From contig JAFGSW010000086.1 in NCBI GenBank assembly GCA_016934415.1, forward strand, positions 2,042 to 66,041: DNA of 64,000 nucleotides, read 5' to 3'. The notes under the pieces are model-generated. The model did no database searches. It saw only the letters and a list, made by a program, of their open reading frames with translations, and was not told the origin of the DNA. Below are positions 1-63,104 of this stretch, in pieces (the stretch's first letter is position 1; each line of letters opens with the position of its first letter). The translations under genes were made by a program, and so were the position numbers. This DNA comes from Spirochaetales bacterium (lineage in GTDB: Bacteria; Spirochaetota; Spirochaetia; SZUA-6; RPPD01).

Positions 1-1698
1 GACGCCGATGGACCAGGCGTCCCGGTGGCCGTAGCTTGTCCCGGTCTTCCAGGCGATCCGCCGTGAGGAAGAGAATGAGCGCCAGTTGACGTCCTCGCCC
101 GGCCGCTCCACCTCGAGTATGGCCTCGAGGGTGAGCCAGGCCGCGGCCTGCGAAAAGACGCGGCCCGGGCGCAGATCCGTCCGGTTCGATTCCGGACGGT
201 CGCCCTCGAGGAAATACGGCTCAACCGCTGACGCGTCGCCGGACTCGCTCAAGGCGGCGCGGCCCAGCCCCGCGTACATTCCGGTGAGCTCCCAGAGCGT
301 CCCCTCGGCGCCGCCGAGGATGAGCGTGAGGCCGTACTCGCTCGCCGGGCGGAAGAGCGTCGACATGCCGAGCGACCTGAGCAATCCGTAGAACCGGTCG
401 AGCCCGAAATCCTTAAGCATGCGGACGGCGGGGACGTTCAAGGATTGAGCGAGGGCCGACCGGGCGGGCACCGCGCCCCGGAACGTCTGCGTATCGTTTT
501 CCGGCCGGAACCCGCCGTAGCGGGTGGGGATGTCGGGCACGAGTTCGGTGGGGAGGATCTCCCCCTCGTCGAGGAGGGCGGCGTAAAGGAAGGGCTTGAG
601 GAGACTCCCGGTGCTTCGGGGCGAGGTGAGGATGTCCACGTCCGGAGCGTGTTCCTCGTTGTCCTCTTCCGGAAGGACGTTGCCCACGTAGGCGAGGGTG
701 CGGCCGGTCGCTGTGTCGATGACGCAGGCCGCGGCGTTATGGATGCCGTTTTCGGAGAGCCGTTCGATGTGGCGCTCGAGTATCCGGCACACACCGATCT
801 GCAGGGTCCCGTCGAGCGTGCTGATTGCGCGGTAACGCCGGTTTTGCGGACGGCTCTCGGCGGCGTTGCGGGCGGCGACGCGCGCGAGAAGGTGCGGGGC
901 GTCTCTGGGGAGCGGGCGGGGCGATGCGGGCAGCGGCTCTTCCTTCGCCAGGCGGCAGTCGAGGTCCGCAATGACGCCCTTCCGCCGCAGCTTGTCGAGG
1001 AGCCGGTCGCGCTTCTCCTTGAGCCGCTCGCGATTGCGGCCGGGATGTATGAGGCCGGGGCTGTTCGGCAGGACGGCGAGCAGCGCGCTCTCGGCCCAGG
1101 AGAGACGCTCAGGGTTCCTTCCGTAATAGCGCCAGGCCGCGCTCTGCAGGCCGACGGTGTTGCCACCGAACGGGGCGTGGGAGGCGAAGAGGGCGAGGAT
1201 GTCGTCCTTGCCGTATTCCGTTTCCAGCCGCAGGGCGAGGAAAGCCTCGATGATCTTTTCCGGCACGCTCCTGTCGTTTCCGCGGCGCTGGAGCCGGATC
1301 ACCTGCATGGAGAGGGTGCTGCCGCCGCTCACCACTTCGCCGGCGGCGAGGTTCTGGACGAAGGCCCGGGCGAGCGAAAACGGGTCCACTCCGGGATGGA
1401 CGAAGAAACGGCCGTCCTCATAGGCTGTAAGGGCGGTCTTGAATTTTTCGGGAACGGAGGCGACGGGCGGGAAACGCCACTGTCCGTCCGCGGCAATGGA
1501 GGCGCCGAGGAGCCCGCCGTTCCGGTCGTAGAGGCTCAACGCATACGGGTCCGAGAAAAGCGGCCGGGGCAGGAGGAGACGCCAGATCCCGAGCGAGGCG
1601 AGCGCGGCGAAAAGCGCGAATCCCGCCGCCGGCAGTACTCGACGCAGTGCCCTCGAAGAGCGCCGCAGCGCCGGCGAAGACCGGAGGATCTGATTCAT
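1..1698 (-). CDS. pbpC: Penicillin-binding protein 1C (PbpC), N-terminal transglycosylase part; 3' end runs off the window
   Basis: Not in the ORF track because the stop lies before position 1. Manual reverse translation from the ATG at 1696-1698 gives MNQILRSSPALRR..., a TM anchor, then GT51 transglycosylase motifs (GGSTLSMQVIRL; EKIIEAFLALRLETEYGKDDILALFASHAPFGGNTVGLQSAAWRYYGR). It lies immediately downstream of the A2M gene, as in the yfhM-pbpC pair. The overlapping + strand ORFs 445..1728 and 86..391 are antisense artefacts. Confidence 0.8.
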   Translation of the reverse strand, partial: MNQILRSSPALRRSSRALRRVLPAAGFALFAALASLGIWRLLLPRPLFSDPYALSLYDRNGGLLGASIAADGQWRFPPVASVPEKFKTALTAYEDGRFFVHPGVDPFSLARAFVQNLAAGEVVSGGSTLSMQVIRLQRRGNDRSVPEKIIEAFLALRLETEYGKDDILALFASHAPFGGNTVGLQSAAWRYYGRNPERLSWAESALLAVLPNSPGLIHPGRNRERLKEKRDRLLDKLRRKGVIADLDCRLAKEEPLPASPRPLPRDAPHLLARVAARNAAESRPQNRRYRAISTLDGTLQIGVCRILERHIERLSENGIHNAAACVIDTATGRTLAYVGNVLPEEDNEEHAPDVDILTSPRSTGSLLKPFLYAALLDEGEILPTELVPDIPTRYGGFRPENDTQTFRGAVPARSALAQSLNVPAVRMLKDFGLDRFYGLLRSLGMSTLFRPASEYGLTLILGGAEGTLWELTGMYAGLGRAALSESGDASAVEPYFLEGDRPESNRTDLRPGRVFSQAAAWLTLEAILEVERPGEDVNWRSFSSSRRIAWKTGTSYGHRDAWSIGV

Positions 1699-2023
1699 CC
1701 TCCGTATTGCTTGAAGAACGTGCTTTAAAATCGGCGCAAGCGGCGACGGGCCCGGGCGGGCGGCCCGCTTCCGGGCCGGGCCGCCATCCGGCTTTCCGGT
1801 CCGGAAGAGGTATTCCCGCAATGTCAGGTCGAGCAGCATGCGAACGCCTATCAGGCTTTTAAATAAACCGTGTTTTCCGCTCCGCGGAAAACCAGCGGTA
1901 TTTTAAAAGCTTCCAAAAATGTAAACCAGAAATTGCCGGAATTCACTTTGTGAGATTTTTCAAGGTTTTTAGTCTGTTACTACTCAATTCCTTATCTCAA
2001 AATCGACTCCGGCAATTTCATGA

Positions 2024-2062
2024 GCAGGTTGTTGAACAAGCTCAACTTTTTCAGCAACCTGC
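2024..2062. repeat. Palindromic hairpin H1 (17 bp arms, loop CTCAA) immediately after the A2M TAG stop
   Basis: gcaggttgttgaacaag-ctcaa-ctttttcagcaacctgc. About 34/39 identical (87%) to the copy at 51836-51873. Confidence 0.7.
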
Positions 2063-5000
2063 TATTTGACCACCGTGACCCACTGACCGGGCAGGCGCGA
2101 TTGGATCGTGGCGTCGTACATCGCCTCCACGCTCTGTATGGGGAGGTAGAATTTTCCCAGGTAACTCGCGTTGAGCAGAACCTGGAAGGTCTTCGTCTCG
2201 TCCCGCGCCAGGTCGAAGAAAATATTGACCCGGTCGTCGCGCACATCGAGGTAATCGTAGGGCGAGTTGACCGCTCCGCCCGGTCCCTCCATGCGCAGGT
2301 TATGGATCTCCCAGCCGGAAGGGAAGAGAGCGGACAGGGCGAGCGTCTGCAGGGCCCGGCCGCTTGAGTTTCTCACCGTGATCACCGCCATGAGGTCGGT
2401 GCCCTGCTCAAGCGATTCGATCGACACCGCTTCTCCCTTGAGCCCCCGGTAGGAGACGTCGAGACTTAATCCGTTCGCCGACGGCTTCTCCCGCCCCGGC
2501 TCCGGCAACCCTTTGGCGAAGACGCGGACGAAGAGCGTCTGCCCGCCCGAGTTCGCCACCGTCACCCTCAGGTTGGCGCCGTTTCCGACCGGCAGAGGGA
2601 TCTGCATGACGGGCGCGCCGCTCTGTTTGGACGTCGGGGCGGCCGAGCCCGCGGCGTAGCTGAACTTCATGAGCCCGTCGCCCTGCCGCACGCCGGCGAA
2701 GCGCGCCATGGCCACCAGGCAGTAGGCCGTGGCCTGCGTGGAGAGCCAATCGTCCCGGCACAGGGCGTCGGATATCTCCTGAACGAGCTTGTCGGCCTGC
2801 GAGTAATTGTTCATGAGGGACATCGTTTCGAGGACGATCGCCTTGTCCCTGAGGTCCGAGCCGTAGGTGCCCGTGAGCTCGTGATAGACGCGGAAAACGA
2901 TGCGCTGGACGGCCGTGAGTTGGGAGGCGGCTTCTTTCTGGCCCGCGAGGGTGTAGGCGGCCGCCAGGTACCAGCGCGCGGTAACGGAGAGGTTTATCGA
3001 CTCGCGCAGCCGGTTCATGGATCCGATCTCGGGCGTGCCGTTCAAGGCCAGCCCGTAGAGGCGGTAGGCCTGGGTGAGCTGGCCGCTCTCGTCGCCGGGG
3101 CTCCAATTGAGGGCCCGGTTCTTCTGGTATTTCCGCCATTGGGAAAGCATCGCCTCGGGCACGTGGTAGGCGAGGCGCTTGGCCTCGAGCAGGAAGTGCC
3201 CGGCGTAGTTGCTCCCCCACTCATCGCTTTTACCGGCGCCGGGCCAGTAGCAGAATCCGCCGTCCGAATTCTGGAAAAACATGAGGCGGCTGATGCCGGC
3301 CTCGACGTTTCGCTGGACTGATTCCGCCTGCTGCGGGGAAAGCTCGAGGAGCTTGGGCAGGTAAAGCTGGGGGAAGACCGACGAGGTCGTCTGCTCGATG
3401 CAGCCGTAGGGGTAATGGATGAGGAAGTCGAGGCGCTTTCCCAGGTTGAGCGGCGGGATGCGCGAGACCTCGAGGGTCGCCTCGTTGGTGCCGGGGAGGC
3501 CCGGCAGCGCGACGTCCTTGACCGCCGTCTGGCCCGCGCCGACGGCCTGCGAGTGGACGTCCACCACGGGCAGGGCGGGCACCCGCACGTCGAATTCGAT
3601 CTTCTGGGAGATGCTCTCTCCCGCGCCGGACGCGTCGATGGCCACACTGGCGACGCCGGTCCGGTTCGCGGCCTTGAGCCGGAAGTTGAGCATCCCGTCT
3701 CCCGGTTCCTTGAAGGCGATGGTCTGGACGGCGGCCCCGTCGATCGAAACCGGTCCCTGGACGCTCACCTTTACGTTGACGTTTTTCAGCTTCGCCTCGG
3801 TGGCGAAAACGGCCACCGGCAGCGCGAACTCCTCGCCGACGGCGACGCTGCGCGGCAGGGTGCCCTGCACCATGAGGGGTTTCTTCACCGTGACCGTTTT
3901 TTCCGCGGCGCCGAAAGCCCGGCCATTGCCGGCCACGACCATCACCCGCACCGCGCCCACGTACAGCGGGATGTCGACGGTGTGGGTGCGTTTGACGCCG
4001 GCGGCCAGCGTGAACGGGCCGTAGAAGCGCACCAGGGGCGGGAAGCGTTCGGCCTTGCGGCCCTTGTCCGGCAGGAGGTCACCTTCGCCTCCGCCGATGG
4101 CGAGCAGCTGTTCGAGCTTGCCGCCGTAGGCAGCGGCGACGTAATCGTAGAGGTCCCAGGTGCCCACAGCGATCGCCTGTCGCTTGAAGAACAGGTCCCA
4201 CGGATCGGGCGTGGCGTAGCGGGTGAGTCCGAGCAGGCCCTCGTCAACCACGGCCAAGGTGTACGTCATGGCTGCGCCCTGCCGCTCGCTCACCGTGACC
4301 GCCGCCTTCGATTCCGGCTTAAAGACGTCGGTGCAGGCGATGGCGGGCTTCAAGTGCGTCGCCGGATTTTCCACCATCACCGGCAGGAATCCGTAGAGGC
4401 GGATGGGCATGTCGTTGCCCGTGCGCATGTGCGGCTGGAGGTAGGTGACGTGTGCGTAGATATTGGGCGCCATCTCGGCCGCGGCCGTGAACGAATAACG
4501 GTAGGTTTGATCGCTGGCCGCCGGCGTGAAATATTCGGTGGAGAGGATCTTTCCGCCGGCTTCGATGCACACCACGCCCCGGCCCTGCGGGGCGACCGGG
4601 ATGTTGAGGGTGATCTTGTCGCCGACGGCGTACTTTTCCTTGTCGGCGGAGAAGGTGAGCATGTTCGCGCCCGGCGAACCTTCAGCCTGGGCCCGGCCGG
4701 CCCAGCCCGGCCAGTCGATGTAAACGATTTTACCGGTGTTGTGGTTGCCCTCGAGGTCGCTCACATGGACGAAGAACCGGCCCCACTGGGGGTATTTGAC
4801 CTCGAACCGCCACGAGCCGCGGCCGTTTTTAAGCTCCACTACGTCGCTGTCCATCGGCTGGTAATCGGAGGTGCCGACGTAATTCGCCAGGTCTTCCTCT
4901 TCTTTCTCCCACCACCAGCGCCAGCGGATCTTGTACAGCTCGACCTTGACCCGCGCATTTTTAACCGGTTTCCCGTCCTGGTCGACGGCCATCAGGTCCA

Positions 5001-21366: not shown

Positions 21367-21530
21367 GTTTTGCATTCGAAGCTTGCTCCGGGCGTATTGT
21401 GCAACGTAGAATCCAGCACGCCGAGAGGTGTTCGGAGCCTGCCCTGAGCTGCTTTGGAGCATGTATGCTCCAAAGCAAGCCGAAGGGTGACCTTCGTGTC
21501 CTCTTTTGAAGGTCCATAAAGGAGAGTTCA

Positions 21531-29751: not shown

Positions 29752-29775
29752 TGGAGAGTGATACTCCATATCAAA

Positions 29776-29841
29776 TGGTTTTCTATTTCCTAAGTCATCG
29801 GCTTGCGATAGACTGTGAGGGCATAAGGAAACAGAAAACCA
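29776..29841. repeat. 66-bp inverted repeat resembling a miniature copy of the MITE termini
   Basis: ggttttctatttcctaag, 29-nt spacer, cataaggaaacagaaaacc. Shares the ATAAGGAAAC core. Confidence 0.4.
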
Positions 29842-29853
29842 TTAAAATCGATA

Positions 29854-29881
29854 ATGCTGAAAAGTATTTGCTTTTCAGCAT
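29854..29881. repeat. Palindromic hairpin H2 (GAAAAG/CTTTTC-core family)
   Basis: atgctgaaaag-tatttg-cttttcagcat, a perfect 11-bp stem, between convergent genes. Confidence 0.5.
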
Positions 29882-29938
29882 AGTACTCCCCAGATTGTGC
29901 AGGACAAAACACGCCGCCCCCCGCCGGAAGGCCGGCCG

Positions 29939-31093
29939 CTATTTTCCGGTGATCTGGATTTTTTCGCCTTCCTCCAGGACGCGGAAAATGCTCGTGCCCG
30001 CCTGATCCGAAGTTTGGATGAGAACGGGCTCGGCGAGCTGTACGCCGTTTTTGTCCACCAGGATTTTGACGACCGGGCATTTCGGGTTCTGGGGGTTGGT
30101 CTTGACGACCACGCCCTTGGCCTTGTTGGTGAGGAGCACGTAGGTGCCCACCGGGTAGAGCGAAATGGAGAAGATGAGCGCCTTCAGGACGTTCTCGTCG
30201 TACCGGTTCCTGTTGTTCTTGAGGAGGTCGATGATGCCGTGGTGGCCGTCGAGCGAGTCCTTGAACGGCCTCTCGGCGGTGATGCCGTCGAAGGAGCAGG
30301 CCACCGCCACGATGCGCGAGTAGAGCGAGATCTGCTCGCCTTTGAGGGCCCGCGGGTAGCCGGAGCCGTCGAGGCGTTCATGGTGTTCCATCGAGACGAG
30401 GGCGAGAGGCTCGGGGACGGAGAGGGCGCGCAGGCTCTTGTAGCCGGCGATGGTATGGGCCAGTATGTTCTTTTTCTCGGACTGGTCGAGCGGTTTCTCG
30501 CTCATGTACAGGGCCGGCGGCAGGCGGAGCATGCCGATGTCGTGCAGCAGGGCCGCGATCCCGAGCTCAATGAGCCGGTGAGGCGCCAGCTTGAGGATAT
30601 TCCCGATGGCGAGGGAGAGGAGCGCGGTGTTGACGCTGTGGTTGTACAGATAATTTTCGGTGGGAAACTTGAGCTCGGCGAAGCGCAGGATGAAGTCCTT
30701 GTGCTTCTTGACATGTTCAATGGTCGACTTGATCTTATCGGTGAGGAGAGGGACGTCGAGCTCGTTCTTGGACAGGAAATCTGTGAACAGCTCTTTGGTG
30801 AAGGTGAGCAGGTCGAAGTAGAATTTCCCGACCGCTTCCTGATCGTTTTTCTGCCGGATGTTCTCGTCGAGGGTGTATTCGATGGTGGGGGTGTCGTCGG
30901 TTTTAACGAATTCCGACCGGGTGACGGGGTTGCCGCCGGTATAAAGCTTGGTGTAGTTCCACTTTTTCAGCCGCTCGATCAAGCTCTCGTCCACCGCGAC
31001 GTCAGGGCTGAGCACGATGTATTTCTCGTCCAGAAACACGGATTCGGTGAAATTCATGTTGGGCATGAGACTGTCGACCCTGATCGCGTTCAT
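29939..31093 (-). CDS. HD-GYP domain c-di-GMP phosphodiesterase
   Basis: LLHDIGM ... HHERLDGSGYP signature. CAGGAG RBS. Confidence 0.85.
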   Translation of the reverse strand: MNAIRVDSLMPNMNFTESVFLDEKYIVLSPDVAVDESLIERLKKWNYTKLYTGGNPVTRSEFVKTDDTPTIEYTLDENIRQKNDQEAVGKFYFDLLTFTKELFTDFLSKNELDVPLLTDKIKSTIEHVKKHKDFILRFAELKFPTENYLYNHSVNTALLSLAIGNILKLAPHRLIELGIAALLHDIGMLRLPPALYMSEKPLDQSEKKNILAHTIAGYKSLRALSVPEPLALVSMEHHERLDGSGYPRALKGEQISLYSRIVAVACSFDGITAERPFKDSLDGHHGIIDLLKNNRNRYDENVLKALIFSISLYPVGTYVLLTNKAKGVVVKTNPQNPKCPVVKILVDKNGVQLAEPVLIQTSDQAGTSIFRVLEEGEKIQITGK

Positions 31094-33221: not shown

Positions 33222-33468
33222 AAATTCGCAGCCGACTTCCAAAAAAAGTTCGACTATTACTGACGTGCAAGGCGGCGAGGAAAGATCGCATAGTGTTTTG
33301 ATCATGGACTCGTTGATCGGCAAATGGAAAACCGGATGCGGTTTTCCATTTGCGGCCATAGATGTAAACAAGAAATTGCCGGGAGTCATGAGAAAGGCTT
33401 TCACGTACCTTAAGGCGATGAAATTATTCTATGCTCCACCCTTATGTGTTAACCGGCAATTTCATAGA

Positions 33469-33505
33469 CCAATGTGCGAAAAAGCTCGACTTTTTCGCAC
33501 ATTGG
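33469..33505. repeat. Palindromic hairpin H3 immediately after the TGA stop of the CBM48 gene
   Basis: ccaatgtgcgaaaaag-ctcga-ctttttcgcacattgg, a perfect 16-bp stem. The stop codon (revcomp of 33506-33508) directly abuts it. Confidence 0.65.
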
Positions 33506-34201
33506 TCAGGGGACCGTCACCACCGACAGCTGGTGCCGGTCGACATCGATGACCACTCGTTCATTGAGGGGGTCGATGAAGGAGACGCCGTCAAGAACGA
33601 AGTAATACAGGTGTCGGCCGGGGAGAAGCTTGATTTTGATGCTATATACTCCGGGCTGTGTTTCCGAAAGCCGGTGAGTGAAGGGATTATAGTTATTAAA
33701 ATCGCCGGCGATGGTGATGAGTTCTCCGGGTTGCCCCGCCACCGTGAATTCCACATACCCGTCCCCCAACAGTCGGGGGCTCTCAAGTGTGGGCTGATCG
33801 GTCTTCTGAACGGAGAAGAGCGAGAAAACGACGCCCCGTTCGTCGGTGACGCTTGCGGGATTGGCCGGATCCGCCATCCAGACGCCGTCGACCATGAAGC
33901 GATACCTGACGACCCCACCGGACGCGGGAAGCGGTAGCGACAACACGTACACGCCGTTTTCGTTTTTCCTGAAGGTATGAAAAATCTCGTATTTTTCGTG
34001 GCTGAAACGCGCCCCCACGATGAAAACGCGCGCCGCGGGACGGTAGCTGAAAATGACGAGGTCGTTGAAGACCTCCGGGGGACGGGCGTTTTCAAAAGCC
34101 TGCAGGTGCAGGTTTAAATCCACCGATTCGGCCGAGACCTGGATGAGGCTCAGCGTCAGGAACAGAACGGCCGCCGAGCTCGTCATACGAAACGATGTCA
34201 T
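33506..34201 (-). CDS. Secreted protein with CBM48/AMPK-beta glycogen-binding-like (E-set) domains
   Basis: Signal peptide. YRFMVDGVWMADPANP and YYFVLDGVSFIDPLN motifs typical of CBM48. Confidence 0.65.
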   Translation of the reverse strand: MTSFRMTSSAAVLFLTLSLIQVSAESVDLNLHLQAFENARPPEVFNDLVIFSYRPAARVFIVGARFSHEKYEIFHTFRKNENGVYVLSLPLPASGGVVRYRFMVDGVWMADPANPASVTDERGVVFSLFSVQKTDQPTLESPRLLGDGYVEFTVAGQPGELITIAGDFNNYNPFTHRLSETQPGVYSIKIKLLPGRHLYYFVLDGVSFIDPLNERVVIDVDRHQLSVVTVP

Positions 34202-38103: not shown

Positions 38104-38389
38104 CCGGCGCCGGTCTGAACGCTCAATCCTCCATCATGATCGCCTTGACGGCGAGGAATCCGCGCGCCAGTCTTCGCTCCCCCTCGAAATTGATGAGCGG
38201 TTCGGCCCGATCGCGGGAAATACTGCGGGTGAGGAACTTCCAGGCGGTATCGTCCGACAACGTCACGGTCGCTTTTTATAAATTCTTATCCGTGTTATCC
38301 GTTCTTCTCAGTGTCCTGAGCCTGCCCTGAGCGACCCCTCACTCAATTTTTTGAGTGAGGGGGAGTCGAAGGGTGGTTCCCTTTTCTCT

Positions 38390-39487: not shown

Positions 39488-39647
39488 GCTGTAATTCCTC
39501 CGAAAGTGATAAGGCCCGATGAAACGTGCGGTTATTATGCAAGGCGGCGTTTTCGGCGGTGTCCTTGATAGGGTGATTGTAGTGGACCCGGCAGGCGTCG
39601 TCAACAATATTTTTATTTCGCAAACTGAACGTATAGGGACAGGTTTT

Positions 39648-39686
39648 GCAGGCTGCTGACAGACTTGAGGTCTGTCAGCAGCCTGC
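39648..39686. repeat. Palindromic hairpin H5 (perfect 17-bp stem, loop TTGAG), same family as H1/H4
   Basis: gcaggctgctgacagac-ttgag-gtctgtcagcagcctgc. Shares GCAGGCTG...TTGAG...CAGCCTGC with the copies at 2024 and 51836. Confidence 0.65.
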
Positions 39687-39700
39687 TAGGCAATTGCTCG

Positions 39701-39786
39701 CCGACCACCCGCACACAGGTGGTCGGACTACGCAATTACATAAATGAAGGAAAGTGATGACAAACTCTCAATGAGTTTGTCATCAC
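39701..39786. repeat. Two further strong hairpins in the GH31-ilvE spacer
   Basis: ccgaccacc-cgcacaca-ggtggtcgg at 39701-39726, and gtgatgacaaactc-tcaat-gagtttgtcatcac at 39754-39786 with a perfect 14-bp stem. Confidence 0.55.
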
Positions 39787-39854
39787 CCTATTGATCGTGA
39801 TGCACCCGCATTCTGATAATTTTCCCCGCTTTCTCATTCTCATGCACGTGATCA

Positions 39855-44871: not shown

Positions 44872-45387
44872 GTGTCGTCGATTGATCTCGTGCTGCTGGG
44901 TCTTCTGGCCCGGCAGCGGCGGAGCGCCTACGATCTGGCCAAGGAAATAGCGCGGTACGAGCTTGACGGCGTCGTCCGCTTGAGCATCCCGGCCATCTAT
45001 AAAAACGTCAAACACCTGGAAGAGCGGCGCTACCTCGAGCGGCGCGAAACGCGCCGCGGCGAGATGCCGGAGAAGACGATCTACTCGCTCACCGCCCTCG
45101 GCCGCGAGCGGTTCCTCGCGCTCATGGAGCAATGCGCGGCGGAGAAGGTCCGCTATCGATTCGATTTCAATCCGGTCATCCTCAATCTGGACGGCGTGCC
45201 GAAACAGCGGCGCGGGAAGCTGCTTCGCCTCATGAAGGAGAGCCTGGCGGCGGGGAGAAAAGAGCTGGAGGAATCGCTTGAGGCGTGGAAGGAAAAATCG
45301 ACCACCGCCGGCCTCATTCTGGGACAGGTGGAGTCGGTGAGCCGGGCGCTGGGCGAATGGATCGACGACGCGTTGAAGAAAACGTGA
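44872..45387 (+). CDS. PadR-family transcriptional regulator
   Basis: LVLLGLLARQRRSAYDLAKEI ... IPAIYKNVKHLEERRYLERRE winged-helix signature. Confidence 0.8.
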   Translation: MSSIDLVLLGLLARQRRSAYDLAKEIARYELDGVVRLSIPAIYKNVKHLEERRYLERRETRRGEMPEKTIYSLTALGRERFLALMEQCAAEKVRYRFDFNPVILNLDGVPKQRRGKLLRLMKESLAAGRKELEESLEAWKEKSTTAGLILGQVESVSRALGEWIDDALKKT

Positions 45388-45393
45388 CGTATT

Positions 45394-45490
45394 GTAGAGA
45401 CGCGCGGCCGTGGGTTGCTACAATTTCAATCGCCCGTGTGGTTTTTCAAGTATAGATATAGCGTAGAGACGCACGGCCGTGCGTCTCTAC
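45394..45490. promoter_or_regulatory. Two copies of GTAGAGACGCRCGGCCGTG; the second is a perfect 28-bp palindrome
   Basis: Copy 1 at 45394-45421 is an imperfect palindrome. Copy 2 at 45463-45490 is gtagagacgcac-ggcc-gtgcgtctctac. Between the convergent PadR and HD-GYP genes. Confidence 0.5.
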
Positions 45491-45507
45491 GATTCAATCC
45501 CGCGTGA

Positions 45508-47883
45508 TCATTTTTTGAATGTATACCCTTTTTCAATGAATAACCGTAGACAGGCGTCCACCGCGGACGGCTCGTACAGCGTGTTCTTGTTCTGCACGAT
45601 CTCGGCAAGCGCCATTTCGATGCCCAGCGATTCCCGGTACGGCCGGTGCGAAGCCATCGCCTCGACGACGTCCGCCACGGAGAGGATGCGGGCCTCCAGG
45701 CTGATCTGATCGCCTGAGAGGCCGCGCGGGTAGCCGGAACCGTCGAGCCGCTCGTGGTGCTGATAGACGATCTCGGCGATCGGCCAGGGGAAATCCACGT
45801 TTTTCAGGATGTCGAACGCTACTTGCGGATGGCGCTTGATCATGCTGAACTCGATGTCGTCCAAAATGCCCGACCGGTTGAGGATTTCGGACGGCACGTA
45901 GATTTTTCCCAGGTCGTGGATGATGCCCGCCATGCGGATGCACTCGATCTGCGACGGGGAGAGCCCCATTTCCTGGGCGATGTTGCGCGCCAGGTCCGAG
46001 ACGCGGTGCTGGTGCCCGGCGGTGTACGGATCGCGCGTCTCCACGGTCAGCGACATGGTCTGGATGAAACCGGCCATGGCGTGGCGCAGGGTGTCCAGCG
46101 TGCGGCCGAGGTCGTTTTTCTGCACCTGGAGCTCCTTGTAATGGATGGCCGCCTCCATGGCGCCGCCGATGATGTCGCTCAAGAAGGTGATGAAGCGCAG
46201 GCGCTTCGGCTCGACCGGGAAGAGGACGAAACCGATCCGCTTGAGCGACTTGACGATGACGTGCCGGGGCTCCGCGTCGGAGAGAAAATCGTCGGGGACG
46301 AGGTCCCGCGCGGGATAGACGGCGCGCGCAGGGTCCGATTCGATCCGCGTCCCGTCCCTGAAGGCGAGGAGGGAGCGGGCCAGCGCGCGGTCCGAATCGT
46401 ACAGGGCGATATAGCAGTCCTTTAGCTCCACCTCGGGCAGGCGATAGGCGAGGATGCCCATCTGCCGCTCGATGTCGAGGGTGACGATGATCTCGCGGAT
46501 GAGCTGCAGGGAGCGGCTCTCCTGAAGGTAGCCCATGAGACGGTCCCGCTCGCTCTGAATGGCCTGCCGGCCCAGATCCATCACCGCCTTGAAGCACTCG
46601 TCGCGGATCTCGGCGGGCATGTGCCGGTCGCCGTCGGGCGAGGCGCGGTCCGGCCATAACCCGTACAGCAATTCCTGAAACACGGAAAAATCGAGACCTG
46701 ATACCGAGGACTGCCGCGCGATCTCGCCGCAGGTCCAGGCGAATCGTTTTTCATCCCCTGCCTCGAACCCGTGCCGGAGGGATTCGACGAGCGAGGAGGC
46801 CAGGGCGGAGACGCTGCGTCCGGCGGCTCCCCGCGCGTCCTTCGCTCCCCGGACAGGGTGCGGGGCATCCGCCCATACGGCGACGGCCGGCGGCGTCTCT
46901 ATTCTCTTGCCCGGGACGGGATCCGCCCTGCCGCCGGTGCATCCGCAGGAGCGCCTGATGACCGGGACGGTCGGCAGCAGGGTTCGAGAGGGAACCGGTT
47001 TTCCCGCGAGAACCTCGACGAGCAGGCGCGCCGCGTTCCAGCCTTTTTCCCACACCGGCTGGCGCACGGTGGTGAGCGGCGGCTCGCTGTAGCCGGCGAT
47101 TTCCAGGTCGTCGAAGCCGGTGATGCTCAAGCGGCCGATCCTCTCCGGATCGCGCCGGGACAAGGTTTCGAGCGCGCCCACGGCCATGCTGTCGTTGGCG
47201 GCCACGATCGCGTCCACGCCGTCCAGACCCCGGCTCAGGAAATAATCCATGGCGTCCCGGCCCGAATCGGGGGTGAAGGAGCCCTGGTAGACCAGCTCAG
47301 GATCGAGGGGCAGCGAATGGTCTCCCAGGGCCTCGACGAAGGTTTCGTACCGCTCGGCCGCGTCCGGGTTGCCGTCCGTTCCCCGGATGAAGGCGAAGCG
47401 GCGCGCCTGGTGGCGATCAATGAGGTGGTCGATGAGATCGCGGAATCCCTGACGGTTGTCGGTCATGATCGAGGGCATGGAGGAGAGCTCCGCGCCGACG
47501 CTCACGGCCGGCAGGCCGGCGAAGCGCCCGCAGAAATCGGCGAAGGAGGAAAGTCCGACGTAGCGCGAGAGAGGGGCGGAGAGGATCACGAGGCCGTCGA
47601 CGGTTTCGCTTCCGGCCAGGTCGTAGACGGCGTTGCGCTGCAATTCGTATTCGTCCTGCGCCTTGAGGGCGCCGCCTTCGAAGAAGACGCAATTCATCCC
47701 GTGCTCGTGGACGTAATCCAGTATCCCGTTCAGGAGCAGGAATTGATAGTTGTCCGTCGTCCAGTCGATGAAGATGCCGATGGTCGTTCTTTTTCTGCTC
47801 CGATCTCCCATGTCGCCTTCCCGGCCCCCTCCGTCGGATGACCGTTCATTGGAATTATACGAACATCCGGCGTCGCGATTCAA
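45508..47883 (-). CDS. LacI-type sugar-binding-domain sensor fused to an HD-GYP c-di-GMP phosphodiesterase
   Basis: N-terminal Peripla_BP-like domain (TTIGIFIDWTTDNYQF...DAIVAANDSMAVGALETL) with no signal peptide. C-terminal HD-GYP (HHERLDGSGYPRGLSGDQIS). An alternative start lies at 47811. Confidence 0.8.
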   Translation of the reverse strand: MNRDAGCSYNSNERSSDGGGREGDMGDRSRKRTTIGIFIDWTTDNYQFLLLNGILDYVHEHGMNCVFFEGGALKAQDEYELQRNAVYDLAGSETVDGLVILSAPLSRYVGLSSFADFCGRFAGLPAVSVGAELSSMPSIMTDNRQGFRDLIDHLIDRHQARRFAFIRGTDGNPDAAERYETFVEALGDHSLPLDPELVYQGSFTPDSGRDAMDYFLSRGLDGVDAIVAANDSMAVGALETLSRRDPERIGRLSITGFDDLEIAGYSEPPLTTVRQPVWEKGWNAARLLVEVLAGKPVPSRTLLPTVPVIRRSCGCTGGRADPVPGKRIETPPAVAVWADAPHPVRGAKDARGAAGRSVSALASSLVESLRHGFEAGDEKRFAWTCGEIARQSSVSGLDFSVFQELLYGLWPDRASPDGDRHMPAEIRDECFKAVMDLGRQAIQSERDRLMGYLQESRSLQLIREIIVTLDIERQMGILAYRLPEVELKDCYIALYDSDRALARSLLAFRDGTRIESDPARAVYPARDLVPDDFLSDAEPRHVIVKSLKRIGFVLFPVEPKRLRFITFLSDIIGGAMEAAIHYKELQVQKNDLGRTLDTLRHAMAGFIQTMSLTVETRDPYTAGHQHRVSDLARNIAQEMGLSPSQIECIRMAGIIHDLGKIYVPSEILNRSGILDDIEFSMIKRHPQVAFDILKNVDFPWPIAEIVYQHHERLDGSGYPRGLSGDQISLEARILSVADVVEAMASHRPYRESLGIEMALAEIVQNKNTLYEPSAVDACLRLFIEKGYTFKK

Positions 47884-50324: not shown

Positions 50325-50645
50325 GGAAACTGAAAAGGGGAATGAAGGAAATAGATATGCTTATCGCTTTTTTACCGAAATCCTTCCCTGATTTTTCCAA
50401 AACTCTTCCTTTTTTTTTCAAGTTCCGATTATAGGTACGAGTGTATGGTGATTCGCATTCTCCAGACCGGATTATCTTTTCCATTTTTCTTCTTCTTTAT
50501 CCGTGTCATCCGTTCCTATCCGTGGTTCCCTCCCTCGTTGAATGAATGCCGCGAATTGTGTTCCCCCGCAAAATGCTATATAATGATGGCATCAACCGTC
50601 GGCATGAGCCGGACACCCGCACTTCCACCGGAGAAAGGAACGACG

Positions 50646-51836
50646 ATGATGACTGCTTTTTCCGCAACCAGGAAATACTTCTGCCTCGTCCTTGCGGCGG
50701 CGCTGTTTTTGGGCGCCGCGGGGGGGGCGTACGCCCAGGGGAAGGCCGTGAAGATCGGCTTCGTGAAGATCGAGAACTCGAGCGAAGACCCGCGCTACGA
50801 CTACCTCGAGGGTATCGTGAGCGGCACCCTGCTCTACGACCTGTCCAACGCCCCGGGACTCGTCGTCGTGGATCGGGCCTTGCTTGACAACATCCTCAAG
50901 GAGCAGGAGCTTATTTTAAGCGACCTGGTCAAGGCCGACAACGCCGTCCGCGTCGGGAAGATTCTCGGCGCCGACTACCTCCTCAAGGGCGATTACGTTT
51001 TCCTCGGAAACGAAATCCGGCTGAACGTCTCCATCATCAACGTGGAATCGGCCAAGACCATGACCTTCAAGGAGACCGGCTCCACGGAAAACCTGGTGCA
51101 CGCCGTGTGCGAGCGGATCATCGAGCGCCTCACGGGCAACCAGGTCGCCCTGCGCTCGGACGAGCACGACCGGTCGATCATCTCGCTCAAGGACGAGAAG
51201 CCCGGTTCGATCGGCCTGTTCTGCAACCTCATCGACGCCGAAATTTTCGTGGACGACCAGTTCGTCTGCTACTCCACGGGCAAGGCCAACGTGCCGAGCG
51301 AGCTCACCGGTCTGAAGCCGGGCAAGCACACGGTGCGCGTCCGCCTGACGGGCTTCGGCGTGGTCAAGGCGCCGGAGATCACCTTCTCCGACTGGCAGCA
51401 GGCGGTGGACGTGAAGCCGGGACAGCGGCAGGTGGTCCGCGCGCAGATAACACTTTTCACCTACCAGCTCTACGACCTGCAGAAGCTCCTCTCCGACCAC
51501 GTCCGGATCGAAGCCGCGGATTTCGGCAAGCCCTTCTCCAAGGAAATGGAATTCGAATACGTCGACCGCGCAAGCAAAAAGCACAAAGGAAATCTGAAGC
51601 TCTCGCTCGCCGCCGCGGAAGCGCAGGCCGAGCTCAAGGCCGAGCTCACTCTCGACGGAAAGAAACGTTCGTACTCGCTCACATGCCCGGCCAAGAAAAG
51701 GACGAAGAGCGATGAAACCTTCGGCAAGGTGGATATTAAACTTGAGTTGGACTACTACTATCCCGACCGTTATTGCCGAATAGAATATCGCGTCACGCGG
51801 AACGACATCAGCCAGGACATGTGGCACAAGGAATAG
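50646..51836 (+). CDS. Secreted protein with an N-terminal CsgG-like domain
   Basis: Start MMTAFSATRKYFCLVLAAALFLGAAGGAYAQG (signal peptide) with a GGAGAAAGGAA RBS; the ORF-track start at 50445 is an extension. Pattern VKIGFVKIEN...DRALLDNILKEQELILSDL...VGKILGADYLLKG...IRLNVSIINVESAKTM resembles the CsgG fold. Confidence 0.65.
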   Translation: MMTAFSATRKYFCLVLAAALFLGAAGGAYAQGKAVKIGFVKIENSSEDPRYDYLEGIVSGTLLYDLSNAPGLVVVDRALLDNILKEQELILSDLVKADNAVRVGKILGADYLLKGDYVFLGNEIRLNVSIINVESAKTMTFKETGSTENLVHAVCERIIERLTGNQVALRSDEHDRSIISLKDEKPGSIGLFCNLIDAEIFVDDQFVCYSTGKANVPSELTGLKPGKHTVRVRLTGFGVVKAPEITFSDWQQAVDVKPGQRQVVRAQITLFTYQLYDLQKLLSDHVRIEAADFGKPFSKEMEFEYVDRASKKHKGNLKLSLAAAEAQAELKAELTLDGKKRSYSLTCPAKKRTKSDETFGKVDIKLELDYYYPDRYCRIEYRVTRNDISQDMWHKE

Positions 51837-51873
51837 CAGGCTGTTGAAAAAGTTGAGCTTTTTCAACAGCCTG
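51836..51873. repeat. Palindromic hairpin H4 overlapping the last base of the TAG stop of the CsgG-like gene
   Basis: gcaggctgttgaaaaag-ttgag-ctttttcaacagcctg. 16-bp stem, no trailing T-run. Confidence 0.7.
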
Positions 51874-51900
51874 ATGGAACGATATATTGTCGCGTTCAAG

Positions 51901-51932
51901 GCCCGCCGCGAAACGTGCGGGCTTTTTTTTTT
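51901..51932 (+). terminator. Rho-independent terminator
   Basis: gcccgc-cgcgaaacgt-gcgggc followed by a T10 run. Confidence 0.7.
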
Positions 51933-63008: not shown

Positions 63009-63069
63009 GCGTTTTCAGGTGTTGAAGGAAGACGGGAATACCCGTCGTTGACTGATTAATGCTGATGAT

Positions 63070-63104
63070 AAAAGGCGGCCCCCCAAGGCCGCCTTTTATT
63101 TTTA
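63070..63104 (+). terminator. Rho-independent terminator of htrA
   Basis: aaaaggcggcc-ccccaa-ggccgcctttt followed by a T-run. Confidence 0.7.

Follow-up and report, generated by a model that had tools for sequence, protein, structure and literature searches.

A small palindromic repeat family, probably mobile, found next to stop codons in uncultured Spirochaetales

A hairpin is built on the stop codon of a CsgG-like gene

The 64,000-nucleotide stretch analyzed here, hereafter the window, comes from a Spirochaetales bacterium (GenBank assembly GCA_016934415.1, contig JAFGSW010000086.1, positions 2,042 to 66,041, forward strand). It contains an open reading frame (ORF) of 463 codons encoding a CsgG-domain protein (50445-51836, + strand), closed by a TAG codon. 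A hairpin, H4 (51837-51873, +), begins at the very next base. Its sequence is CAGGCTGTTGAAAAAG-TTGAG-CTTTTTCAACAGCCTG, that is, a perfect 16-bp stem (51837-51852 / 51858-51873) with a 5-nt loop, TTGAG. An initial annotation of the window, which had described five such palindromes, H1 to H5, placed the start of H4 on the final G of the stop codon. The overlap is real but larger: the stem starts inside the stop, whose last two bases, AG, extend the helix toward the 3′ arm and bring the stem to 18 bp, with 17 of the 18 outer positions paired. As RNA, H4 has a folding energy of -26.3 kcal/mol.

An intrinsic terminator (GCCCGC...GCGGGC followed by T10) begins 27 nt 3′ of H4, which lies within the 3′ untranslated region (UTR), between the CsgG-like stop codon and this native terminator. 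The absence of a U-tract reported initially thus applies to the hairpins themselves, none of which is followed by a T-run, but not to the surroundings of H4. That the hairpins are not canonical intrinsic (Rho-independent) terminators was borne out, as the ordinary terminators of this genome are GC-rich and carry a U-tract. Could they be U-tract-less terminators of this lineage? They are indeed long and stable stem-loops at gene ends, with no T-run directly after. Yet the genome uses ordinary terminators, one of which follows H4 and is kept by a close ortholog devoid of H4; moreover, the stems are A/T-rich nearest the loop, and some copies sit away from gene ends. We give this explanation almost no credence.

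The window contains three related hairpins

The other copies are H1, H3, and H5 (Table 1). H1 directly follows the TAG of a 1893-aa alpha-2-macroglobulin ORF and is, as initially reported, identical to H4 at 34 of 39 positions. H3, with an 18-bp perfect stem and a TCGAG loop, abuts and overlaps the TGA of a CBM48 gene. H5 (39648-39686, +) has a 17-bp perfect stem and a TTGAG loop; it is intergenic between GH31 and BCAT genes, about 170 nt from the GH31 stop, and antisense to both genes. The description of the hairpins as perfect palindromes starting right after stop codons was therefore accurate only in part: H3, H4, and H5 are perfect but H1 has two stem mismatches, and H1, H3, and H4 adjoin a stop codon but H5 does not. 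Likewise, the proposed shared pattern was strongly non-random (three occurrences in the window versus none in 100 shuffles) but hid the fact that the inner stem of H5 is GACAGAC/GTCTGTC instead of GAAAAAG/CTTTTTC, a compensatory variant. A covariance model of the family gave exactly four strong matches in the window, H1, H3, H4, and H5, scoring 58-63 bits. Searching Rfam with the whole window gave no match at the gathering threshold, and in E-value mode the H1 and H5 composites described below returned chance-level matches to miRNA precursors only.

Table 1. Positions of the repeat copies, their modules, and the signals adjoining H4, in window coordinates
Feature	Coordinates	Strand	Remarks
H4 solo copy	51835..51875	+	covariance model 63.4 bits
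TAG stop of CsgG-like gene	51834..51836	+	its final two bases lie at the base of the H4 stem
Canonical intrinsic terminator	51901..51932	+	present also in orthologs without H4
H1 type-1 composite	1852..2063	-	after alpha-2-macroglobulin TAG; ATAG flank on both sides
H1 modules	hairpin A 2023-2063; box1 GAAATTGCCGG 2009-2019; 69-nt spacer; box1′ 1929-1939; GGTTTACAT box 1913-1927; hairpin C 1855-1910	-	
H3 type-1 composite	33320..33507	-	after/overlapping CBM48 TGA; conserved at orthologous position in 3 other genomes
H3 modules	hairpin A 33467-33507 (loop TCGAG); box1 33453-33463; 70-nt spacer; box1′ 33372-33382; TGTTTACATCTATGG 33356-33370; hairpin C 33320-33353	-	
H5 type-2 composite	39646..39791	+	no adjoining stop codon
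H5 modules	hairpin A 39648-39686; GCAATTGC box 39690-39697; middle hairpin 39701-39726; GCAATTAC box; third hairpin 39754-39786	+	

The repeats form a multi-copy family

A census yielded 29 distinct sites in related Spirochaetales metagenome-assembled genomes (MAGs) and metagenomes, orthologous duplicates being merged (individual loci are referred to by L numbers). When species-representative genomes were scanned with the H1/H4/H5 pattern, nine matches were obtained, all within two spirochaete MAGs. In metagenomes, a 21-nt core retrieved 23 loci, of which 18 were family members, mostly from one MAG's population, and the covariance model detected further copies in these loci. The same core had no match in a scan of viral contigs. 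Eight or nine of the 18 member contigs terminate within about 250 nt of the hairpin, as expected of multi-copy repeats, which break assemblies. The GC content of the element is 35-49%, versus 61% for the genome. Thus, the family is multi-copy and, as detailed below, polymorphic between relatives.

We also noticed that L002 and L017, which represent the same gene in two assemblies, are identical through the first hairpin, the adjoining box, and about 10 more nucleotides, and then diverge wholly; in L002 a lipoprotein gene starts after the divergence point. The element appears to be a rearrangement breakpoint there.

Copies are either solo hairpins or three-hairpin composites

The family unit opens with an invariant T, followed by a stem of 18 bp whose inner part is conserved and A/T-rich (GAAAAAG/CTTTTTC) and which carries the loop TTGAG. 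It occurs either as a solo hairpin (H4; 41 nt) or as the first module, hairpin A, of a composite of about 150-210 nt with three hairpins (H1, H3, and H5). Type-1 composites measure about 190-210 nt and type-2 composites about 145 nt. Aligning the regions downstream of H1 and H3 revealed shared blocks past hairpin A, starting with ATGAAATTGCCGG. The type-1 order is hairpin A, ATGAAATTGCCGG, a variable spacer of 69-70 nt, the inverted box CCGGCAATTTC, TKGTTTACATYTWTGG, and hairpin C, whose arms resemble those of hairpin A (GCTGTTGAAAAACCG ... CGGTTTTTCAACAGCCTG in the best-preserved copies). In the type-2 plan, hairpin A is followed by a short middle hairpin, which has GCAATTGC boxes on both sides, and by a third hairpin; this plan, that of H5, recurs at two loci of another MAG, L003 and L010. 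The ends of composites are inverted copies of each other (CAGGYTGTTGAAAAA ... TTTTTCAACARCCTG), and every composite folds into three hairpins on either strand. Solo copies without boxes are H4, L005, L032, and L036; they could be derived from composites that underwent a deletion between the right arms of hairpins A and C, which are direct repeats of each other.

The 11-nt boxes GAAATTGCCGG / CCGGCAATTTC of type-1 composites form an inverted pair, and the 69-70 nt between them are constant in length with a sequence that is unconserved even between orthologous copies. This constant spacing suggests a constraint, such as a protein-bound site or a long-range helix. One may then ask whether the composite is a DNA-level binding array, analogous to bacterial interspersed mosaic elements (BIMEs), that is, a site for a nucleoid protein, gyrase, or a recombinase, with hairpins acting as DNA cruciforms and not as RNA. 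The inverted boxes around a variable spacer speak for it, as do the lack of strand bias among wobble mismatches (see below) and the antisense position of H5 relative to both neighboring genes; in addition, repetitive extragenic palindromic sequences (REPs) and BIMEs are reported to be protein-binding sites, for instance in the recruitment of the integration host factor IHF (PMC2817692, PMC3479197). However, such an array leaves the exact placement at stop codons and the fixed orientation toward genes unexplained, the boxes are missing from the solo copies, and no binding protein is known. We therefore hold it to be very unlikely.

Three further observations concern the composites. A small ORF starting in ATGAAATTGCCGG (MKLP...) was dismissed, since it stops after 7-9 codons and its stop positions are unconserved. 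Inspection of the sequence for an outward promoter in the TTTACA box found no acceptable -10 at the right spacing. Lastly, at L038 a second, diverged hairpin-A-like unit, GGGTTGTTGAAAAAG-TCGGG-CTCCTTCGACAACCC (1556-1648), lies directly past the right end of the composite, in a tandem arrangement.

Most copies start exactly at a stop codon and in one orientation

We tallied the triplet right before the C of CAGG, and counted a site as stop-adjacent when this triplet was the stop closing an ORF of at least 80 codons. At 19 of the 29 sites the offset from such a stop was 0 (16 TAG, 1 TAA, and 2 TGA, both of the latter being the CBM48 locus). Four sites had a stop triplet but no long ORF, and six had TTG, TGG, or TCT instead. 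No copy lay at an offset of 1-29 nt from a stop, the remaining ones being at least 30 nt away. TAG ends about 31% of the window ORFs, based on crude gene calls, so 16 TAG out of 19 is a strong excess (binomial, ~3e-6). Orientation was invariant: the hairpin-A end, with TTGAG in sense, faces the gene in 19/19 cases, and the C end never does. The exact placement at stop codons described initially was thus supported.

The alignment of 27 copies gave a more precise picture of this junction. The T at position -3 is invariant (27/27). The triplet is TAG in 15/27 copies, and the base preceding the triplet is C in about half of all copies and G in only 2/27. The two bases after the T pair and covary with the two bases past the 3′ arm: AG with CT, AA with TT (2/4 copies), and GA with TC. 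The last two bases of the stop codon therefore form the base of the stem.

All three stop-adjacent genes of the window (alpha-2-macroglobulin, CBM48, and CsgG-like) carry signal peptides, and the initial annotation had connected the hairpins with secreted proteins. Outside the window, however, the upstream genes are unrelated and encode mostly cytoplasmic products, among which we found PTS-EIIA/diadenylate cyclase, NusG, dCMP deaminase, an AhpC/Bcp peroxiredoxin, and GT2 and WecG glycosyltransferases. Near-identical copies stand behind unrelated genes, nusG included. The link with secretion therefore fails outside the window.

The family includes a young copy and an old copy

The CsgG locus carries the hairpin in the window, and the five orthologous loci examined are empty (L011, L012, L014, L015, and L016); the covariance model found no match in them. 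The closest ortholog, L011 (87% amino acid identity), ends in ...TGGCACAAGGAA-TGA at the same codon position as the window gene, has no hairpin, and carries the same GCCCGC...GCGGGC-T terminator 22 nt past its TGA. Orthologs at 69% identity also lack the hairpin and have the same end codon, the stop being TGA or TAG among orthologs. Because the C-terminus is unchanged and the terminator pre-exists in the empty orthologs, H4 is an insertion between the two, lineage-specific and young. A contig search with the CsgG-like protein of the window returned only a 1.6-kb Logan contig, which ends inside the hairpin. Incidentally, the block of CsgG, PBP, two-MCP, NDK, and EF-G genes occurs twice, about 14 kb apart, on the 24-kb JGI contig Ga0568894_0004050 (L012 and L013), which could be a large direct duplication or else an artefact of the assembly.

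A different situation was met at the CBM48 locus. There, the hairpin stands against the same TGA in the orthologs L040 (79% identity), L042 (75%), and L041 (67%), so that four genomes are filled. Four other orthologs have no hairpin A, and all are TGA-ended; their identities are 59-54%, except for L043 at 69%. As the non-carriers also end with TGA, the element must have been placed against this codon, and its target is not strictly TAG. L040 differs from the window by two stem-A and three stem-C changes, and L041 by five in stem A; each of these is compensated. The boxes and the loop-proximal part of the stem are conserved among these copies, and the 70-nt spacer is unalignable. H3 is thus an old copy maintained by compensation, which makes some constraint on the hairpin plausible.

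At 868-910, L043 has a different perfect palindrome, TCAAATGAAAACCC-AATA-GGGGTTTTCATTTGA, which includes its TGA stop. Its arms are similar to hairpin C in the H3 composite (AAATGGAAAACC), and this palindrome may be the remnant of an internal deletion. As for H1, a protein search for empty orthologous sites with the C-terminal 400 aa of the alpha-2-macroglobulin returned only matches of at most 51% identity, in other phyla.

The stems covary, and several processes could account for it equally well

Across 27 distinct copies, 96.3% of the cells were paired, and 15 of the 18 pairs showed changes on both sides. None of 500 shuffles scored as high, and no slid register came close. The conserved structure that the initial annotation had noticed is thus a robust property of the family. 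One-sided wobble intermediates were rare. Mismatches comprised 7 G.T versus 9 A.C and were symmetrical between strands: a sense-strand G-U bias, which would indicate selection at the RNA level, was looked for in the stem mismatches and none was found. This pattern of compensation is equally expected for a sense RNA, for a DNA hairpin recognized by a protein, or for template switching during replication. Perfect stems have been shown to arise and be maintained through template switching (PMC8794818).

These data bear on the possibility that the hairpin is a host-encoded functional RNA of the 3′ UTR. It would then serve in stability or processing, or bind a translation-coupled factor, and would be selected for regulating the upstream gene, its spread by duplication being secondary. 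Several observations go in this direction: the conservation of the CBM48 copy in four genomes with fully compensated stems and a completely diverged spacer, the strong family-wide covariation, the sense orientation of all 19 gene-adjacent copies, the conserved loop and box sequences, and the location of H4 upstream of a real terminator, hence in transcribed DNA. Furthermore, ribosome stalling has been reported for REPs located within 15 nt of a stop (PMC12306157). On the other hand, H4 is missing from every CsgG ortholog examined, near-identical copies follow unrelated genes such as nusG, 10 of the 29 sites are away from ORF ends, and H5 is antisense to both its neighbors. The stem mismatches are not biased toward G-U on the sense strand, contigs break at the element in the way typical of repeats, and compensatory changes can arise by template switching without selection (PMC8794818). 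We consider a host-encoded functional RNA rather unlikely. The more specific proposal of the initial annotation, a gene-specific 3′-UTR signal for exported proteins, is at odds with a repeat dispersed over 29 sites and with the absence of H4 from five orthologous loci. Overall, the initial observation was confirmed in part, and its interpretation is partly supported.

The hairpins are probably copies of a mobile element

The explanation that we find rather probable is that H4 is a solo copy of a small, dispersed, REP- or MITE-like palindromic repeat of uncultured Spirochaetales (MITE standing for miniature inverted-repeat transposable element), which inserts next to stop triplets. The hairpins would then be probable copies of a mobile element. 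The borders of the element bear on how it might move. The far end of solos and composites is usually CCTG-NTAG(G), and most copies are bracketed by direct NTAG repeats. An exact 4-bp NTAG at both ends was seen in only four copies, H1 (ATAG) and L006, L010, and L032 (CTAG); the repeats are off by one base in about seven further copies and unrelated in some (L020, TTTG/ATAG; L037, CTAG/ATCG). This bracketing fits equally well with a 3-4 bp YTAR- or CTAG-like duplication, as produced with a MITE of the IS5 or IS630 type, or with an element ending in ...NTAG that inserts 3′ of TAG without duplication, as in the IS200/IS605 or REP/RAYT type (RAYT, REP-associated tyrosine transposase; IS, insertion sequence).

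The first of these options amounts to a classical MITE moved by a DDE transposase, either IS5-like (YTAR) or IS630-like (TA in CTAG). The arms would be back-to-back terminal inverted repeats, TAG the left copy of a 2-4 bp duplication, and solos the products of deletion. The inverted ends of composites (CAGGYTGTTGAAAAA ... TTTTTCAACARCCTG) and the presence/absence polymorphism agree with it; YTAR fits the left flanks of about three-quarters of the copies, CTAG being the commonest, and direct repeats flank H1, L006, L010, and L032, as listed above, as well as L008 (TAA/TAA). However, flanks are unmatched in many copies, like L020 and L037, and the variable first base matches in 7/12 cases versus about 4.3 expected, which is not significant. 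A palindromic or short target should also have given both orientations, yet 19/19 gene-adjacent copies present the same end to the gene. Arm sequences that are free to vary provided that they pair are unusual for inverted repeats recognized by a protein, and no transposase was found next to the copies examined. Movement by a DDE enzyme seems to us rather improbable.

Returning to a mobile repeat aimed at stop triplets, we propose the following scenario. New copies would be installed by an element-specific enzyme, always in the same orientation and immediately 3′ of a T-A-G or T-R-R triplet. A transposase acting on single strands, of the HUH/Y1 type (IS200/IS605 or RAYT-like), is favored over a DDE transposase because of the invariant orientation, the same-direction hairpins at both ends, and the free covariation of the arms. 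Insertions inside genes would be lost, and those at stop codons would leave the protein intact; surviving copies would therefore be those that start right after stop codons. Palindromy would then be kept by compensatory change, through either selection on the hairpin or replication template switching. By analogy with REPs, the inserted stem-loop of -26 kcal/mol, once transcribed in the 3′ UTR, would probably act as a barrier to 3′-exonucleases and/or slow ribosomes at termination.

Several points weigh against this explanation. The target-site duplication is ambiguous, many flanks matching at two or three of four positions. No transposase or RAYT gene was found next to copies: the ORFs by the extra copies in L008, L009, and L019 encode only an MCP and a HU-like DNA-binding protein. 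Across about 270 kb of retrieved loci, we also saw no autonomous IS sharing the element's termini. The copy at the CBM48 locus stands against an ancestral TGA, which does not fit a strict TAG target. Its retention down to 67% identity, with blocks conserved and every stem change compensated, fits a host function better than junk DNA. Finally, the sampling patterns required the TTGAG loop and the inner stem, so that sequence variants are under-sampled.

A more speculative variant, which we regard as quite unlikely, is that base pairing directs the element to stops. The two nucleotides immediately 3′ of hairpin A (CT, TT, or TC) would pair with the last two bases of TAG, TAA, or TGA, in the manner of an IS200/IS605 guide; variants would have been retargeted to other stops, and the hairpin, with the stop in its stem, exapted to tune termination or mRNA decay. 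If true, this would explain the upkeep of the old copy by compensatory evolution. Incidentally, an integron attC site was also envisaged and dropped: the flanking genes are large and chromosomal, and the arms are without the RYYYAAC/GTTRRRY cores of attC sites.

If the mobile repeat explanation is right, these hairpins belong to a family of small palindromic repeats that had not been described before, from an uncultured clade of Spirochaetales. Such repeats break metagenome assemblies and could be mis-annotated as terminators or small RNAs. With a stop codon built into the stem, and a young copy (H4) and an old compensated one (H3) present within a single 64 kb, the family would be a convenient system for studying how REP-like elements choose their sites and whether hairpins are kept up by selection or by template switching.

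Other palindromes and ORFs in the window

The initial annotation had listed H2 (29854-29881) with a related core. Its membership of the family was ruled out, the covariance model giving it 13.6 bits (E = 0.17). H2 lies 3′ of the HD-domain gene (29939-31093, -), in about 150 nt that are missing from the CAZKOS ortholog (L040) and that hold other hairpins, unrelated to it. The H2 region (29774-29990) includes a long interrupted hairpin (29774-29843, with GGTTTTC/GAAAACC arms) and a third small palindrome, and this stretch may be a different inserted repeat. A perfect 30-nt palindrome without spacer, CGTAGAGACGCACGG|CCGTGCGTCTCTACG, lies at 45462-45491 between a PadR-like ORF (44872-45387, +) and a convergent ORF (45508-47883, -); its sequence is unrelated to the hairpin family. 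Further perfect hairpins of 12-13 bp occur at 63068-63099, 38335-38362, and 21450-21477. None of them fits the covariance model, and one, ATAAAAGGCGGCC...GGCCGCCTTTTAT, resembles a bidirectional terminator. Beyond the H1 composite, the long ORFs 445-1728 (+) and 438-1166 (-) had no Pfam match on either strand.

Comparison with known systems

The closest described sequences are the GTAG-tagged REPs (Di Nocera et al. 2013, PMC3733652). Like them, the spirochaete repeats are short dispersed extragenic palindromes with compensatory stem variants, are found mostly downstream of ORFs, and stand alone or in composite arrays. It is already known that GTAG-type REPs can provide flanking ORFs with their TAG stop codons (PMC3733652), so the stop-adjacent hairpins have a precedent; here, TAG at offset 0 closes an ORF of at least 80 codons at 16 sites. 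GTAG REPs are thought to be mobilized as single-stranded hairpins by a Y1 transposase. There are, however, clear differences. The tag is NTAG, mostly CTAG, with a paired AG, whereas REPs are defined by an unpaired GTAG (or GYAG, GTRG) at one end in >90% of members. Stems are A/T-rich and of 16-18 bp, as compared with 6-13 bp in REPs (PMC3733652). The loop is a conserved 5-mer, TTGAG, and composites are units of three hairpins in direct orientation, together with conserved boxes. The hosts are Spirochaetes, in which the published survey reported only CGTC-type repeats (PMC3733652), and no RAYT was identified beside the copies examined. By tag and stem length, the spirochaete family fails the formal definition of GTAG REPs.

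Bacterial MITEs, such as Correia/nemis, ERIC, and RUP, or those derived from IS5 and IS630, share with the family a non-coding nature, a size of about 40-210 nt, inverted termini, multiple copies with presence/absence polymorphism, and TA- or CTAG-rich insertion sites. They are also often co-transcribed with flanking genes, forming RNA hairpins. In contrast to MITEs, the spirochaete repeats have a fixed orientation relative to target and gene, an unclear target duplication, a freely covarying hairpin at each end, and no known parent IS.

Palindrome-associated transposable elements (PATEs), which derive from IS200/IS605, have same-direction hairpins at both ends, insert just 3′ of a short specific sequence in one orientation and without duplication, and conserve the structure of their ends over its sequence. 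The fixed orientation in 19/19 cases and the composites with hairpins at both ends are reminiscent of them, but the CBM48 copy abuts an ancestral TGA and not TAG. In the spirochaete family, moreover, the hairpin lies 0-1 nt from the presumed target, versus about 10-20 nt in PATEs, the first hairpin pairs through its 3′ side with the bases of the target, and no TnpA/TnpB partner was seen.

A last comparison can be made with the E. coli REPs situated within 15 nt of a stop codon, which down-regulate translation through ribosome stalling and form a stable stem-loop that the terminating ribosome must unwind (PMC12306157). The spirochaete hairpins share this feature and differ in that the stop codon itself is part of the stem. 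By analogy, a stem containing the stop codon could stall terminating ribosomes as such REPs do.

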